DNA of 4,566 nucleotides from a virus (lineage: Duplodnaviria > Heunggongvirae > Uroviricota > Caudoviricetes), in the IMG/VR virus record IMGVR_UViG_2875713109_000002; one strand, 5' to 3'. Numbering within the stretch: the first letter of the stretch is position 1; each line of letters begins with the position of its first letter. Shown here piece after piece: positions 1 to 4,566 of this stretch. The notes under the pieces were generated by a model. It saw nothing but the letters and a program-made list of their open reading frames with translations. It was not told the DNA's origin and did not search any database. Both the position numbers and the translations under genes were made by a program.

Positions 1-60
1 AAATGAGGAAATTGGCCTGAAACAGGGCCAAAATCAGCCACGAAGAGACGATTTTGGGCT

Positions 61-76
61 GAAAATTGGAAAATTG
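61..76. repeat. Perfect tandem 8-mer GAAAATTG x2, with a related copy GAAATTGG at 8-15
   Basis: Read directly: GAAAATTG at 61-68 and again at 69-76. The surrounding segments 11-50 and 53-91 are an imperfect direct repeat (TTGGcCTGAAA... / TTGGgCTGAAA...; ...AGCCAC in both). Significance unknown. Confidence 0.3.
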
Positions 77-162
77 AGCCACAGGACGTCGATAAAGGAC
101 GGTTTGGGGCGTCATATCGGGAGCTGCGGACCACTTAATCGCAACTTCCCTAGAAGATACTT

Positions 163-188
163 ACACATTTTTCCTCTGAAAACTGTGT
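163..188. promoter_or_regulatory. Imperfect 10-bp inverted repeat upstream of the ATPase promoter (possible operator)
   Basis: ACACATTTTT (163-172) and AAAACTGTGT (179-188) are 9/10 complementary, with a 6-nt spacer. A second short palindrome, ACTGAA-TT-TTCAGT (248-261), abuts the TG of the extended -10. Confidence 0.2.
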
Positions 189-197
189 GTTACGTCA

Positions 198-270
198 TTG
201 ATGGATTGTGTTGGAATGGCTAATAATTTGGGTGATGTCATAGTTTTACTGAATTTTCAGTGATATAAAT
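198..270 (+). promoter_or_regulatory. Candidate sigma70 promoter region for the ATPase gene
   Basis: Two candidates read by eye: TTGATG (198-203), 18-nt spacer, AATAAT (222-227); and an extended -10, TGATATAAA (261-269). Both sit in the AT-rich leader upstream of the RBS AAGGA (326-330) and the ATG at 334/337. Not experimentally supported. Confidence 0.3.
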
Positions 271-333
271 CATGTAAAAATAAGGTGTTCTACGTAAGGT
301 TATTTTTCTATACACAGCTAGCATAAAGGATTA

Positions 334-1782
334 ATGATGTTTATTAAAAAACTGAAGATAGAAAATTTTAAAGGGTATCACGGGGAAGATAATGAGTTGG
401 AATTCAATATCCCTGATGGAGAAACGGAAGGTAGTGGACTTAATATATTTGTGGGTGAAAACAACGCCGGAAAATCCACTGTATTTGAAATTATAGATTT
501 TATAAAGGATGGAACCAAAAAGAACATTGAGGATCTTATATGCAAATCAGATCCGGCTAATATTGCTGAGAAGCTTTCAGCCGAGCTAACCTTCACTGGA
601 AACTTATCAGAAGTAATTGCCGCTCATGTACAAGCTAATAAAGTTGCAGCATTCACCTCGCATGTTTTTGAGGACGAGGGTGTTAATTATTTCAGAGTGA
701 AGAGGTGTAGTGAGGTAGGGGAGAAGAAAATATTATTTTGGAACGGAAATGAATTTGTTAACCCAAGTGGTATAGATGCCCCATTTAAGAAGTTTTATGA
801 TAATAACTTCATTTGGGCTGATACAAACCCAAGCAATGAAGCAAAGTTTGGCTCTACAACTATATGTGGTTCGCTTCTAAAAGAAATTGCTTTAGGCCAT
901 ATTGAAACGGATGAGTATAGAGCGTTTTCTGAGCAATACCATCGCGTATTCAATCACCCTGAATCAGAGTTGAGACAGAAAATATCATTAGTCGAAAATC
1001 AAGTTAGAGAGGTTTTCTCATCTCAATTTGGTATGGCAGATATTTCTTTCATTTTTGAAGAGTTGCAGGTAGAGAATTTCTTCAAAACTATTTCCATCAT
1101 GATTGATGATGGGGTGAATGTCCCAATGGGAGAAAAGGGGCATGGTATGCAAAGGGCACTAGCCCTATCATTACTTCAGGTGTACGCTGAGATAACGTGT
1201 AATGCGCATGGTGCGGGGATTAGTAAACCATTTTATCTTTTCATTGACGAACCTGAAATATGTCTTCATCCTTCAGGGCAGCAAAAGCTTTTAGAAGCTT
1301 TAATGATTATCTCCAAAAGTAGACAGGTTTTTGTTACAACGCACTCTCCTTTCCTTTTGTCCTCCCCTTACCTTAAAAATATCGGTCTGTTTGTTTTCAA
1401 AAAAGAGAATAATAAAAATGTTGTGGAAAGGGCTGATACTTCTCCATGGTTCCCTTGGTCTCCATCGTGGGTCGAGATTAATTTCAAAGCATACAATTTA
1501 GCAACCGTTGAATTGCATAATGAATTATATGGTTATTTGCAGGAGAAAAACTCCTGTCCAAGCGAAAAAACAATGGAGCAATGGCTAAATTCAAAGGGAA
1601 TTGCGTTTGATAAAGTATGGGTTAAAGAATTTAAAGGTGCGGCACAACCGCCAGCGGATACTACATTACAAACATTCATCCGTAATCATATACACCACCC
1701 AGAGAATGTTACAATGCAATCTCATCGCTATACACAACAAGAATTACTAACTTCAATCCAACAAATGGTTGGGCTTCTATAA
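334..1782 (+). CDS. ABC-type ATPase (AAA_15/AAA_21-like, OLD/GajA/PtuA/AriA clade) with uncharacterised C-terminal domain carrying a HEPN-like R-N-x3-H motif; candidate anti-phage defence protein
   Basis: 482-codon ORF with RBS AAGGA at 326-330 and tandem ATGs at 334 and 337; the second has the better spacing. Walker A GENNAGKST (aa 41-49, nt 454-480). Signature-like GEKGHGMQ (aa 266-273). Walker B FYLFIDEPE followed by LHP (aa 300-313, nt ~1231-1272). H-loop VFVTTHSP (aa 332-339). No Toprim-like E / DxD motifs after the ATPase core. C-terminal ~140 aa contain R450-N-H-I-H-H455 (nt 1681-1698). Codon usage is strongly AT-rich, unlike the neighbouring genes. Ends 7 nt before a terminator hairpin. 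Confidence 0.85.
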   Translation: MMFIKKLKIENFKGYHGEDNELEFNIPDGETEGSGLNIFVGENNAGKSTVFEIIDFIKDGTKKNIEDLICKSDPANIAEKLSAELTFTGNLSEVIAAHVQANKVAAFTSHVFEDEGVNYFRVKRCSEVGEKKILFWNGNEFVNPSGIDAPFKKFYDNNFIWADTNPSNEAKFGSTTICGSLLKEIALGHIETDEYRAFSEQYHRVFNHPESELRQKISLVENQVREVFSSQFGMADISFIFEELQVENFFKTISIMIDDGVNVPMGEKGHGMQRALALSLLQVYAEITCNAHGAGISKPFYLFIDEPEICLHPSGQQKLLEALMIISKSRQVFVTTHSPFLLSSPYLKNIGLFVFKKENNKNVVERADTSPWFPWSPSWVEINFKAYNLATVELHNELYGYLQEKNSCPSEKTMEQWLNSKGIAFDKVWVKEFKGAAQPPADTTLQTFIRNHIHHPENVTMQSHRYTQQELLTSIQQMVGLL

Positions 1783-1784
1783 AG

Positions 1785-1814
1785 AAAAAGGCGAGCCGTT
1801 TGGCTCGCCTTTTA
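1785..1814. terminator. Bidirectional rho-independent terminator shared by the convergent genes
   Basis: Perfect 8-bp GC-rich stem GGCGAGCC (1790-1797) / GGCTCGCC (1802-1809) with loop GTTT. Flanked by AAAAA (1785-1789) on the left and TTTT (1810-1813) on the right, so each strand's transcript ends in a U-run. It lies 7 nt after the ATPase stop and 8 nt after the stop of the minus-strand ORF. Confidence 0.7.
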
Positions 1815-1817
1815 ATA

Positions 1818-2009
1818 TTAATTTAATAACTTGCGCTTTTTAGATAATAGTACGCTTAAAGCATATTCAAATCCGTGTTGCGCCTCTAGACGGCATAGGG
1901 TGATATTACAGATCCCCAACTCCTTACACAGCGCCTTTCGATTAATTACTTCCGCCGCGCCTGATACATAGACTTGACCAGCGCCGGGGATATTGATTGA
2001 AACTTTCAT
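1818..2009 (-). CDS. Small helix-turn-helix protein (63 aa), possibly a truncated or remodelled phage gene
   Basis: ATG at 2009 preceded by GAGGT with about 6-nt spacing. The segment KALCKELGICNITLCRLEAQ fits a classic helix-turn-helix pattern (E-L-G-I-x3-T-L-x-R-L), resembling AlpA/excisionase-like or small-terminase N-terminal DNA-binding domains. The last ~15 codons fall in AT-rich DNA, whereas the 5' two-thirds have host-like GC. Confidence 0.5.
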   Translation of the reverse strand: MKVSINIPGAGQVYVSGAAEVINRKALCKELGICNITLCRLEAQHGFEYALSVLLSKKRKLLN

Positions 2010-2101
2010 GTGTTACCTCAGTGTAAAAGTAAAAATGAATATAACCGGAAGAGATAATCCCCAGCCGATACCCAAAGGGCGCGACCGGGGGGCATTTTGC
2101 A

Positions 2102-3121
2102 TTACTTCAGCTTGACGTTCAGCGTGTAGTTCGGGCGCAGGTTCAGAGGGATGAAGCTCGCCTCCTGGTGAATGGTCACCATGCCGTAACGGTCAGTCAT
2201 TACTTTCTGGTAGAACGGGCTGATCTCGCCTTTCGCGGCGATGTCCTGATTACGGGAAGCCGGGCCGTGTACCAGTTTGAACGGGTTACGGTCAGCGCCG
2301 TTAAACTTAGGAACGAACAGGCCGGAACCTTCTTCGATTTCGTAGCGGTCATCGTCCGCCAGAATGAAAGTAATGTTGCCAATGCTGAAGGAGTCATAAC
2401 CCGCAGTGTTAACCGGGATCAGAGCGCCTTTTGCAGCTTCCGCCACTTTGTTGGTAATAAGGCTGGTTACTTCCGGGTGGCTCGCCAGTACGTCATACAG
2501 ATCCGGGGAGCAGAAGCAGAAGAAGCGGTCCAGATAGGAGCGGCTCGTGCCGTACTCTTTAACCAACATGCGGCGAATCTTCGCAAGCTGTGCATACACG
2601 TTAGCGCCTGCTGAACCGTCCAGGTTGAAACTCAGCGGATCGGCACCCATCGCCGCGCGAAAGTCGATATCACCGTCGTCAGTCTTAGCCGCTTTCGCTT
2701 CCTGTTTGAACAGGGCGCGGGCCAGCGTACTTTCAACCGTTTCCAGGTGATGGTTACGCATACGGATAGCTTTAGACGCGATCACTTCAGAAATAGCCGC
2801 AACCTGATCCGGGTTAGCCGGGCTGATCAGACCTTGCCAATCAGCGGTTTTTACGTCCGCTTCGGTGGCGTAGTGTGGGAGCTCCTGGTCACGCAACAGA
2901 GGCTTATCCATTTTGATGGAGTTAACTTCGGTGCCGTAGCGGGCTACCTGTTCCAGTTCAGAGACTTGAGTCTCTACGATGTCCAGAACTTGAGCGTTTG
3001 GAGTGGTGGAGTTAACACCGGAGAAGATACCCAGATCAGAGATCAGGTAATTACCCGCTGGCACTTGTTTAAGTGCCGCTACGGTGTCCAGCTTTTCAAA
3101 CTGTTTAAAATCAATAGCCAT
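2102..3121 (-). CDS. Phage major capsid protein, probably lambda gpE-like family
   Basis: 339-aa ORF. On the minus strand the upstream gene's TAA stop is followed by AAGGAAA and then ATG at 3121, a tight operon junction. Size matches gpE (~340 aa). The C-terminal stretch (TIHQEASFIPLNLRPNYTLNVKL) resembles the gpE C-terminus as I recall it. GC-rich codon usage. Family assignment is from memory, not a search. Confidence 0.6.
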   Translation of the reverse strand: MAIDFKQFEKLDTVAALKQVPAGNYLISDLGIFSGVNSTTPNAQVLDIVETQVSELEQVARYGTEVNSIKMDKPLLRDQELPHYATEADVKTADWQGLISPANPDQVAAISEVIASKAIRMRNHHLETVESTLARALFKQEAKAAKTDDGDIDFRAAMGADPLSFNLDGSAGANVYAQLAKIRRMLVKEYGTSRSYLDRFFCFCSPDLYDVLASHPEVTSLITNKVAEAAKGALIPVNTAGYDSFSIGNITFILADDDRYEIEEGSGLFVPKFNGADRNPFKLVHGPASRNQDIAAKGEISPFYQKVMTDRYGMVTIHQEASFIPLNLRPNYTLNVKLK

Positions 3122-3133
3122 TGTGTGATTTCC

Positions 3134-3241
3134 TTATGCTTTGAAGTAATCGGCGTTGATAGCCAGGCGAATATCACCGGAGGCTGTCAGCGCTTCCAGT
3201 GCGGCTTTTTTGCTCGCGGCGTCTTTAGCACGTAGGGCAAA
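3134..3241 (-). pseudogene. 3' remnant of the head gene preceding the capsid gene (scaffold or decoration protein C-terminus), truncated at a breakpoint
   Basis: The last ~35 codons of minus ORF 3134..3616 (FALRAKDAASKKAALEALTASGDIRLAINADYFKA) look protein-like and end in TAA just before the capsid RBS. Everything upstream in that frame is Cys/Ser/Arg-rich junk lying antisense to a well-formed + strand protein, and no ATG is present in the plausible part. Confidence 0.45.
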
Positions 3242-4385
3242 ATCGGTAACCAACCTTACAGAAAAGGATCTGTTTGACCTGATGCAACAAGGGAAGCTGT
3301 TCTCTAAGGACATCCTCCCGGAAGTGGCGAAACAGATGAAAGCCGCAGCTCGTAACGGCGGCGCTCTGGATAAGGCTATGAAGTCCAACCGGGCAAGTTG
3401 GCAGCGCCTGCAAACCAGTATGCAGAACGCTATGAATATCTTCTTTACTTCTGGCTTTGGTAACTCACTAACCAGCGCTTTCGACGCTATCAGCGCCGCT
3501 GTTAACGGCTCTGGTGGGGCCTTTGAGATGTTCGGGCATATCGCCGGGAAAATCGTTGAGGGTGCCACAGATGCGTTTACAGAGTTGCACGACACTGTGA
3601 TCCTGACCTTCCGCATTATTGAGTATTACGCCGCTAAGATGGGGATCACTGGTGAGCAGCTTAAATCCTGGGGAGAAATGGCAGCATACGCCGCCGGGGT
3701 GGCTCTGTTCGCTGGCTCTATCTGGAAGTTGGGCGGGGCCTTTAAATGGTTGTTGACCATGCTCAACCCGCTAACCAAATTGCTGGGGGTCATGAAAGGG
3801 ATCGCCGCTATTGGTGGCATTGAATCCGCTACAACTGGCGGATCTGGTGGGGAAGGTAAAGACAAGCCAAACAAACCGGGCCGGGGTCCGAAAGTTGGCA
3901 AGGTAGGCGGCGCGGCGGCTCTCTCTGGCGGTCCTGTTGGCTGGGGCATTGCGATCGGTTCGGTAGGTGGGGATTATGCCTGGGATAAAGTCATGGACGC
4001 TAACGACGCCATGTATGGACAGGACACCACCGCCGGAGGCAATCTGAAGAAAGATAGCCCGCTGGGTAAACTGTGGGATTTCATCCACAGCCCAGACCTT
4101 CCGACTAATCCAGACTTTGCCAAACCAACAGATAAAACAGGGTGGGTAAGCTCTTACTCCAATCCGGGTTATGTTCCTCCTGCGCCGACGATTACAGCGC
4201 CACAGCTTAAAGTTGATATGGCAGGTAATCCACTGATGACGCCGCCAGCGTGGCTAAACCAGCCGCTTAACGTGAACGTCAATGTGAAAGTGCAGGATGG
4301 GCAGGTTAGGGATCTGGTCCGCTCTGAAGTTGAGACCAACAACCAGCAGGCTTTCAACATGCTGATGCAGGGCGGGCCGAACTAA
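3156..4385 (+). CDS. Phage tail tape-measure-like protein, C-terminal fragment (N-terminally truncated; plausible coding from about 3243)
   Basis: 409-codon ORF. From about codon 30 the sequence is protein-like, with long hydrophobic Ala/Gly-rich segments (AAYAAGVALFAGSIWKLGGAFKWLL, LLGVMKGIAAIGGI) and a Gly-rich linker (TTGGSGGEGKDKPNKPGRGPKVGKVGG) typical of tape-measure proteins. The first ~28 codons (MIARRISPEAVSASS...) have antisense-type composition and overlap the head-gene remnant. No convincing RBS for the internal ATG at 3282. At ~380 aa it is much shorter than typical tape-measure proteins. Confidence 0.5.
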   Translation: MIARRISPEAVSASSAAFLLAASLARRAKSVTNLTEKDLFDLMQQGKLFSKDILPEVAKQMKAAARNGGALDKAMKSNRASWQRLQTSMQNAMNIFFTSGFGNSLTSAFDAISAAVNGSGGAFEMFGHIAGKIVEGATDAFTELHDTVILTFRIIEYYAAKMGITGEQLKSWGEMAAYAAGVALFAGSIWKLGGAFKWLLTMLNPLTKLLGVMKGIAAIGGIESATTGGSGGEGKDKPNKPGRGPKVGKVGGAAALSGGPVGWGIAIGSVGGDYAWDKVMDANDAMYGQDTTAGGNLKKDSPLGKLWDFIHSPDLPTNPDFAKPTDKTGWVSSYSNPGYVPPAPTITAPQLKVDMAGNPLMTPPAWLNQPLNVNVNVKVQDGQVRDLVRSEVETNNQQAFNMLMQGGPN

Positions 4386-4466
4386 CCGCCCATACAAAAA
4401 AGGCTCCCCTAGTGGGATAATGCCGATCAGTTAAGGATCAGTTGACCGATCCAGTGGCTGTGTAAG

Positions 4467-4501
4467 AATCCGGAAACGCTCACTCGTTTCCGGATTTTTT
4501 T
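4467..4501 (+). terminator. Strong rho-independent terminator after the tape-measure-like ORF
   Basis: Perfect 12-bp stem AATCCGGAAACG (4467-4478) / CGTTTCCGGATT (4485-4496) with loop CTCACT, running into a T-run through 4501. The opposite strand has no T-run, so it acts on the + strand only. Confidence 0.8.
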
Positions 4502-4566
4502 ATGCACATTGGACAGGCCCTTGATTTGGTATCCCGTTACGATTCTCTGCGTAACCCACTGACTTC

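Follow-up and report, generated by a model that had tools for sequence, protein, structure and literature searches.

What does an ATPase of the OLD/GajA/PtuA/AriA type do when it carries no Toprim domain and has no partner gene? This question is raised by a coding sequence at 334..1782 (plus strand, from the list of open reading frames) of the window, by which we mean the whole 4,566-nt stretch of viral DNA analysed here. An earlier note, made from the sequence alone, described the 482-aa product as a stand-alone ABC ATPase followed by nothing but an extension, and concluded that it fits no described family. Our own analysis leads to a different picture of the C-terminal part. With a probability of roughly 0.6, we favor a stand-alone, single-polypeptide abortive-infection candidate in which an OLD-clade ABC ATPase is joined to a C-terminal, metal-independent RNase of the HEPN type.

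The ATPase half is the firmest part of the picture. The gene probably starts at the second ATG (position 337); the homologues begin with MFIK. The OLD-type ABC ATPase domain spans aa 1-365 (334..1428, end approximate), as supported by Pfam, PADLOC, Foldseek and the identity to P2 Old. It contains the full motif set that the earlier note had read from the sequence: Walker A GENNAGKST (aa 41-49 with K47, nt 454-480), the signature-like GEKGHGMQ (aa 266-273, nt 1129-1152), Walker B LFIDEPEICLHP (aa 302-313 with D305/E306, nt 1237-1272) and the H-loop TTHSP (aa 335-339, nt 1336-1350), all on the plus strand. These four motifs are found at the residues proposed and are unchanged in 33/33 homologues of 56-78% identity. 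Pfam returns AAA_15 (3e-30) and AAA_21 (8e-19). The top PADLOC match is Old (7.6e-46), with an alignment limited to model positions 1-352 of 578, that is, to the ATPase part, and the identity to P2 Old is 26% across aa 39-349. A Foldseek search of the PDB with the full AF2 model retrieves retron-Eco8 OLD, GajA, PtuA, Thermus OLD and Rad50 (E 1e-13 to 1e-12); Rad50/SMC heads are also among its structural neighbors. The product is thus an ABC ATPase of the OLD/GajA/PtuA/AriA type.

The effectors of related systems were also searched for in this protein. At E<=0.1, Pfam gives zero matches to Toprim, OLD-like_TOPRIM, HNH or DUF4435. The lack of a Toprim domain, already proposed in the earlier note, is borne out by this result, by the end of the Old alignment at position 352 of 578 and by the helical nature of the C-terminus in the AF2 model. 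No AAA_13 match is found at the same Pfam threshold, PrrC and RloC are absent from the best PADLOC and NCBIfam matches, and the 482-aa model shows no long coiled-coil.

The protein belongs to a sizeable family. The exact protein is annotated in RefSeq as ‘ATP-dependent nuclease’ or ‘AAA family ATPase’. Homologues of full length (~477-505 aa) number more than 1000. Their hosts are Gamma- and Betaproteobacteria and include Enterobacterales, Aeromonas, Shewanella, Acinetobacter, Neisseria and Kingella. The GC content of the gene is 37.5% versus 53-54% in the adjacent capsid and tape-measure phage genes. Comparison of two E. coli alleles gives a dN/dS of 0.13 overall and 0.11 for the C-terminal part, and purifying selection on the gene is clear.

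The genomic surroundings of the homologues vary widely. In Neisseria and Kingella (56-57% identity), the gene is located inside type I-C cas operons, and the order cas3, homologue, cas5d is seen in Kingella oralis, Neisseria and N. animaloris (seven loci). The Serratia homologue lies between P2 gpA and the portal gene, which corresponds to the P2 gpA-gpQ defence hotspot; old and tin occupy this hotspot in the reference genome of P2. In Dickeya, the gene is part of an island with DUF4238, which is a validated defence gene, a HEPN_RiboL-PSP protein and a second AAA_15 ATPase. The Shewanella copy is found in a defence island with UvrD, HNH and two C5 methylases, and the Aeromonas copy follows a gene that Pfam matches weakly to CoiA_N. 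A solitary homologue amid housekeeping genes (plsB/ubiA and gyrA/SDF-family transporter) is present in Morganella and Acinetobacter. No conserved partner gene emerges from this survey, in keeping with the earlier note, and the neighbors differ across every lineage sampled. Since no neighbor is common to the sampled lineages, a one-gene unit is well supported.

We next turn to the residues after the ATPase core. A profile of residues 346-482 was used as query against 1.84 billion cluster representatives (50%-identity clusters). It matched 844 clusters at E<=1e-3, and for 360 of these the E-value was 1e-10 or lower. In the matching proteins, of ~430-660 aa, the domain is placed at the C-terminus, and AAA_15/AAA_21 precedes it in all ten proteins checked with Pfam. 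What had been taken for an extension is instead a domain: aa ~372-482 (1447..1779, plus strand) are strongly conserved, contain an Rx4H motif and have a HEPN-like helical fold, and we predict this domain to be an RNase effector.

The predicted catalytic segment is R450-N-H-I-H454-H455-P-E-N458 (1681..1707, plus strand), an Rx4H motif in which the arginine is followed by a polar residue. It is invariant in the alignment of 33 homologues (56-78% identity). In the wider family, R-[N/H]-x-x-H-H (R450..H455) is present in 145/150 top cluster representatives, and short fragments of 82-150 aa are among the five representatives that lack it. A second conserved segment, E393-x-H395-x-E397-L-Y-G, opens the helix 392-405 (1510..1533, plus strand). 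Across 84 diverse sequences, conservation reaches 87% for E393, 96% for H395, 94% for E397, 100% for L398 and 92% for Y399. From its sequence, this segment is a candidate for the upstream acidic/His portion of the active site. In HEPN domains the upstream acidic residue often occurs as Ex3[KR]. Here E381, E393 and E397 are kept at 87-94%, and the E381-x3-K385 pattern is confined to the close family. The complete set of conserved polar residues among the 84 diverse members comprises E381, E393, H395, E397, R450, N/H451, H454, H455, E457, N458 and S474. The invariant H454, E457 and N458 are located outside the canonical HEPN motif and could mean metal binding.

Between these two conserved segments, the family diverges. 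The lowest conservation is found at aa 404-444 (1543..1665, plus strand), a segment made of helix 411-420 and a beta-hairpin insert. Of the 22 amino-acid differences between the two E. coli alleles, 17 fall within aa 405-442, and the catalytic motifs are identical. This distribution fits a specificity-determining surface, as judged from the alignments.

The AF2 model of the C-terminal region is confident, with block-mean pLDDT values of 87-97. It comprises five helices (379-387, 392-405, 411-420, 445-454 and 468-481) and a beta-hairpin insert at 427-443. The AF2 models thus show the ~100-120-aa alpha-helical bundle with a helix 2-3 insert expected of a HEPN domain. The R450..H455 motif is located where the penultimate helix ends, and a loop and the last helix come after it, a layout shared with HepT (LRNIAVHDY). 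The catalytic HEPN signature has been defined as Rx4-6H with a polar residue (N/D/H) directly after the arginine (Anantharaman et al. 2013, PMC3710099), and R450-N-H-I-H-H455 displays both features. Taken together, the C-terminal domain can be assigned to HEPN with reasonable confidence.

A HEPN-like fold could nevertheless serve a purpose other than catalysis. In this alternative, the C-terminal domain would be a sensor, an RNA/DNA-binding module or an oligomerisation module, and the protein would act via ATP hydrolysis or via an unlinked effector, e.g. Cas3 in the cas-embedded copies. Some HEPN domains are indeed non-catalytic binders, such as MtlR (PMC3710099), the variable 404-444 segment resembles a recognition surface, and the gene adjoins cas3 in Neisseriaceae. 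However, non-catalytic HEPN domains typically lose Rx4-6H (PMC3710099), whereas the arginine and the histidine are retained here in 145/150 clusters alongside several further conserved polar residues. Moreover, the solitary copies amid housekeeping genes have no effector nearby. We regard a non-catalytic role as unlikely.

Profile and fold searches did not identify the domain by themselves. The earlier note had proposed profile searches with the full protein and with residues 346-482 separately, as well as a structure prediction followed by a fold search. Pfam and PADLOC recover the ATPase, but residues 346-482 match no model of either collection: 0 PADLOC families were matched by the C-terminal domain, and Pfam searches at E<=10 with this domain alone and with 40 diverse C-terminal domains produced scattered chance matches only. 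Likewise, AF2 returned a confident helical domain, but Foldseek found nothing significant in the PDB for the C-terminal model, the best hit being ribosomal protein S7 (E 0.41). In PDB sequence-profile searches with two family profiles, HEPN was absent and nothing significant was obtained. Comparison of the family profile with two HepT sequences and with a 24-sequence HepT profile (hhalign) gave probabilities of 0.1-0.7%. One hhalign run paired RNHIHH with HepT RNRLVH.

These negative HEPN searches, by sequence profile and by Foldseek, leave some room for another enzyme. The C-terminal domain would then be a metal-dependent DNA nuclease, and the protein would be functionally analogous to OLD/GajA but equipped with another DNase. 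The invariant H395, E397, H454, H455, E457 and N458 could plausibly form a metal site, the beta-hairpin and the helix after it (427-454) bear a loose resemblance to a beta-beta-alpha unit, and one of the two RefSeq names says nuclease. Against this stand the zero Pfam matches to HNH/His-Me families and the hairpin itself, which has no conserved histidine and is the least conserved stretch of the domain. The RefSeq name probably mirrors the OLD-like ATPase match only. On balance, a metal-dependent DNase appears decidedly improbable.

The E. coli locus provides further information on the extent of the unit. The window is E. coli chromosomal DNA, and its positions 147-4566 are 100% identical to strain PSS-07. 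Positions 1..146 are the end of an IS5-like ISEc68 element, as indicated by a 100% match to the ISEc68 transposase region; 107 such perfect matches are spread over 33 E. coli genomes, and the ten genomes carrying the ATPase gene align solely from position 147-152 onward. The 3′ end of a prophage tyrosine integrase gene follows at 147..223 (plus strand; RefSeq annotation of PSS-07, 90-1 and H8), the upstream part of which is cut off by ISEc68 in the source strain. In all E. coli loci examined, the integrase gene is followed after 110 nt by the ATPase-HEPN gene. The site is the left end of a prophage between rcnR and thiM, and the phage content downstream varies. The gene is rare in this species (10/5426 complete genomes).

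According to the earlier note, a single gene lies between a promoter and a terminator. The downstream half of this claim holds. A bidirectional intrinsic terminator hairpin with a 12-bp GC-rich stem (7 GC pairs) and a T-run is located at 1786-1813, 4 nt past the stop codon. Beyond it, the next ORFs (1818..2009 and 2102..3121) run on the other strand, so that a co-oriented second gene is absent. The match to the divergent E. coli allele of strain H8 ends at 1809. The 63-aa ORF at 1818..2009 was considered as a partner or antitoxin and rejected, being on the opposite strand and missing from the H8-type allele locus. The promoter is less convincing. The upstream region (224..333, plus strand) is AT-rich by composition (28% GC) and its sequence contains an AAGGA ribosome-binding site at 326-330 (plus strand), but the promoter scan gave one weak sigma-70-like match (198-227), at chance level, as matches were no more numerous than in shuffles.

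The surrounding prophage is clearly degraded: it is flanked by ISEc68 (left) and IS4 (right), and its tape-measure gene is truncated. Even so, it is hardly credible that an OLD or Gabija gene was stripped of its Toprim domain or partner as the prophage decayed between these two IS elements, since the ~480-aa full-length layout recurs in more than 1000 homologues of Gamma- and Betaproteobacteria, dN/dS is 0.13 overall, and the PADLOC Old match stops where the HEPN-like domain starts with no Toprim remnant. A truncated OLD gene was rejected for practical purposes, the layout being conserved family-wide.

For an OLD-clade ATPase fused to a HEPN RNase, the following sequence of events can be proposed. 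HEPN active sites form across a dimer, as in Cas13, Csm6, RNase L and HepT. The predicted active site would comprise R450, N451, H454 and H455, with E393, H395 and E397 on the adjacent helix. In the uninfected cell, the ATPase would keep the HEPN RNase off, by analogy with PrrC, RloC, P2 Old and PARIS. A phage-derived cue, possibly an anti-defence protein or aberrant DNA/replication intermediates, would alter the dimer or oligomer state that the ATPase heads adopt depending on nucleotide. Two HEPN domains may thereby be juxtaposed into a composite active site. Once activated, the enzyme would cut host RNA, and translation and phage production would stop. The likeliest targets would be tRNA anticodon loops; cleavage of rRNA or bulk mRNA would be less likely. 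Target RNA, trigger and mode of activation are all proposed here purely by analogy.

A more general scheme may be put forward, although we find it rather doubtful as a whole. The OLD-clade ATPase would be a portable sensor that retains its trigger logic, e.g. the sensing of RecBCD inhibition or aberrant replication intermediates, while its effector is exchanged: Toprim in P2 Old, HEPN in the present protein. In this scheme, the cas3-cas5d copies of Neisseriaceae would provide type I-C CRISPR-Cas with a built-in abortive fallback against inhibition of Cas3 or Cascade, and the hypervariable 404-444 segment would set the specificity for the RNA target or the trigger.

If our preferred reading is true, E. 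coli possesses a compact one-gene defence system whose C-terminal domain has no model in PADLOC v2 (2023) or Pfam. It would be an experimentally tractable addition to the growing set of abortive systems that target tRNA or RNA. It could then be compared directly with P2 Old, in which a related sensor is coupled to a different effector, to ask what OLD-type ATPases sense. Type III CRISPR-Cas is accompanied by an accessory suicide RNase, Csm6, and the cas3-cas5d copies would provide a natural test for an accessory suicide RNase in type I-C CRISPR-Cas. In the searchable literature, we found no experiments on any member of the 334..1782 family and no experimental work on ABC-HEPN proteins beyond PrrC and RloC.

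How does the protein relate to known systems? HepT (type VII TA) and HepS are single-domain HEPN RNases that lack an ATPase; their control is exerted by MntA or through tail-tip sensing, and sequence-profile similarity to HepT is undetectable with hhalign. Identity with HepS, a lone HEPN domain without ATPase, was rejected. Gabija GajA, Septu PtuA and PARIS AriA share a related ABC ATPase fold and its motifs. However, these systems depend on a second protein. The UvrD-like GajB is absent from the window and from the E. coli loci (a UvrD gene is located upstream in Shewanella only), the HNH protein PtuB of Septu is neither adjacent here nor conserved among the homologues, and AriB of PARIS (DUF4435/Toprim) is neither adjacent nor fused.

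P2 Old, a Class 1 OLD nuclease, has the closest ATPase by profile. It is likewise a single, prophage-encoded protein, and the Serratia homologue occupies the gpA-gpQ hotspot that is home to P2 old and tin. The effector differs: in Old it is the Toprim domain, which a helical Rx4H domain replaces here. With regard to OLD Classes 1-4, the ABC ATPase is present and the Toprim domain is missing. P2 Old has been described as an abortive tRNase which is activated when RecBCD is compromised (2026 preprint).

The overall layout is that of PrrC and RloC: one polypeptide in which an N-terminal ABC-type NTPase regulates a C-terminal HEPN RNase, the latter being predicted in our case. In these anti-phage abortive-infection proteins, the NTPase gates a C-terminal HEPN anticodon nuclease, and RloC can be stand-alone (PMC3710099). 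There are also clear differences. The ATPase here is of the OLD/AAA_15 clade and has no AAA_13 match, the linkage of PrrC to type I (Ic) restriction-modification is absent among the E. coli neighbors, RloC has a long coiled-coil with a zinc hook whereas no long coiled-coil is present here, and the HEPN subfamily is distinct under the 2013 classification (PMC3710099). The protein is therefore outside OLD (no Toprim), outside Gabija, Septu and PARIS (no partner) and outside PrrC/RloC (no AAA_13 match).

Its kind is nonetheless already known, and the view that it fits no described family is not supported. PrrC and RloC are long-standing precedents of the layout, and the 2013 HEPN survey predicted further fusions of an ABC ATPase with a C-terminal HEPN domain, very probably including this family (Anantharaman, Makarova, Burroughs, Koonin & Aravind, PMC3710099). 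One of these groups, APECO1_4465, is found in prophages (PMC3710099). Another, ERFG_01251 (gi 422781011), joins the ABC domain to a HEPN of the ‘classical’ type closer to MNT-associated HEPNs; it has an E. coli prototype, occurs sporadically in CRISPR-Cas loci of Neisseria and Kingella, and was described computationally only (PMC3710099). The HEPN family of this group is also fused to ‘HEPN/Toprim-NTD1’ (PMC3710099), which is absent here. In all other respects compared, namely the ABC ATPase with a C-terminal HEPN, a member in E. coli and copies in the cas loci of Neisseria and Kingella, the two agree. Matched by the description of its architecture, its E. coli prototype and its embedding in CRISPR loci, the 334..1782 family is very probably the ERFG_01251 ABC-HEPN family.

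Comparison of alleles indicates that the ATPase gene of the window is a mosaic. When window positions 334-1782 (+) are set against the allele of E. coli strain H8 (locus L016, 9183-10631), the ATPase part is nearly identical, with a dS of 0.05 and two amino-acid changes. From about nucleotide 978 of the gene the divergence jumps, above all at nucleotides 1212-1449 (dS 0.83), and the amino-acid changes are concentrated at residues 405-442. The comparison suggests that the C-terminal domain was exchanged by recombination.

Within the ATPase part, an insert region (window 811-1230, residues ~160-300) is predicted by AF2 with low confidence (pLDDT 43-58). Even so, it includes a run of invariant residues, N158-F-I-W-A-D-T-x-P166...E169..F172-G173, and may be a conserved element that becomes ordered only in an oligomer or on ligand binding. 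Two in-frame ATG codons are found at the start of the gene (334-339). The second of them (337) has the better spacing from the AAGGA at 326-330. Homologues begin with MFIK, and many of the cluster members have 481 residues.

Downstream, a 63-residue ORF (1818..2009, minus strand; hypothetical protein WP_000868620.1) is convergent with the ATPase gene. It contains a helix-turn-helix-like stretch, ALCKELGICNITLCRLEAQ; family searches with this ORF returned no matches, and it is not present at the H8-type locus. On the left, window positions 1-146 are the end of the IS5-like element ISEc68 (100% identity), a multi-copy sequence also found on plasmids. This element breaks the integrase gene, which is intact in strains PSS-07 and H8. 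On the right, the end of an IS4 element (~4396-4566) starts shortly 3′ of the stop codon of the tape-measure ORF. Different insertion sequences, one on each side, therefore enclose the ATPase gene together with the prophage remnant.

Within the remnant, the match of the "tape measure" ORF at 3156..4385 to the tape-measure family profile phrog_5255 is confined to positions 432-800 of 800. The capsid gene and this ORF abut head-to-head (3122-3260), matches of other genomes to the window break at 3248-3254, and in strain 90-1 about 5 kb of phage genes separate the capsid gene from a full 2.1-kb tape-measure gene. Together, these observations point to the junction of an internal prophage deletion in this part of the window.

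In other lineages, the homologues have different neighbours. In four Neisseria type I-C cas operons (L006, L007, L008 and L021) the ABC-HEPN gene lies between cas3 and cas5d, and the interval from cas4 to cas1 holds further inserted genes, which encode a GmrSD-like protein in L008, an HNH_5 protein in L021, and proteins of 437 and 308 residues of no assigned family in L006 and L007. It seems that these operons are hotspots in which other defence genes become embedded. In Aeromonas (L009-L011), a 352-residue gene with a weak Pfam match to CoiA_N ends 60 nt upstream of the ABC-HEPN gene, and the two stay paired on a 3.5-kb contig. In Shewanella (L014-L015), a 923-residue UvrD helicase and a 97-residue ORF are located upstream. 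The ABC-HEPN gene may have lineage-specific partners in Aeromonas and Shewanella, and the UvrD-bearing Shewanella neighbourhood resembles Gabija.
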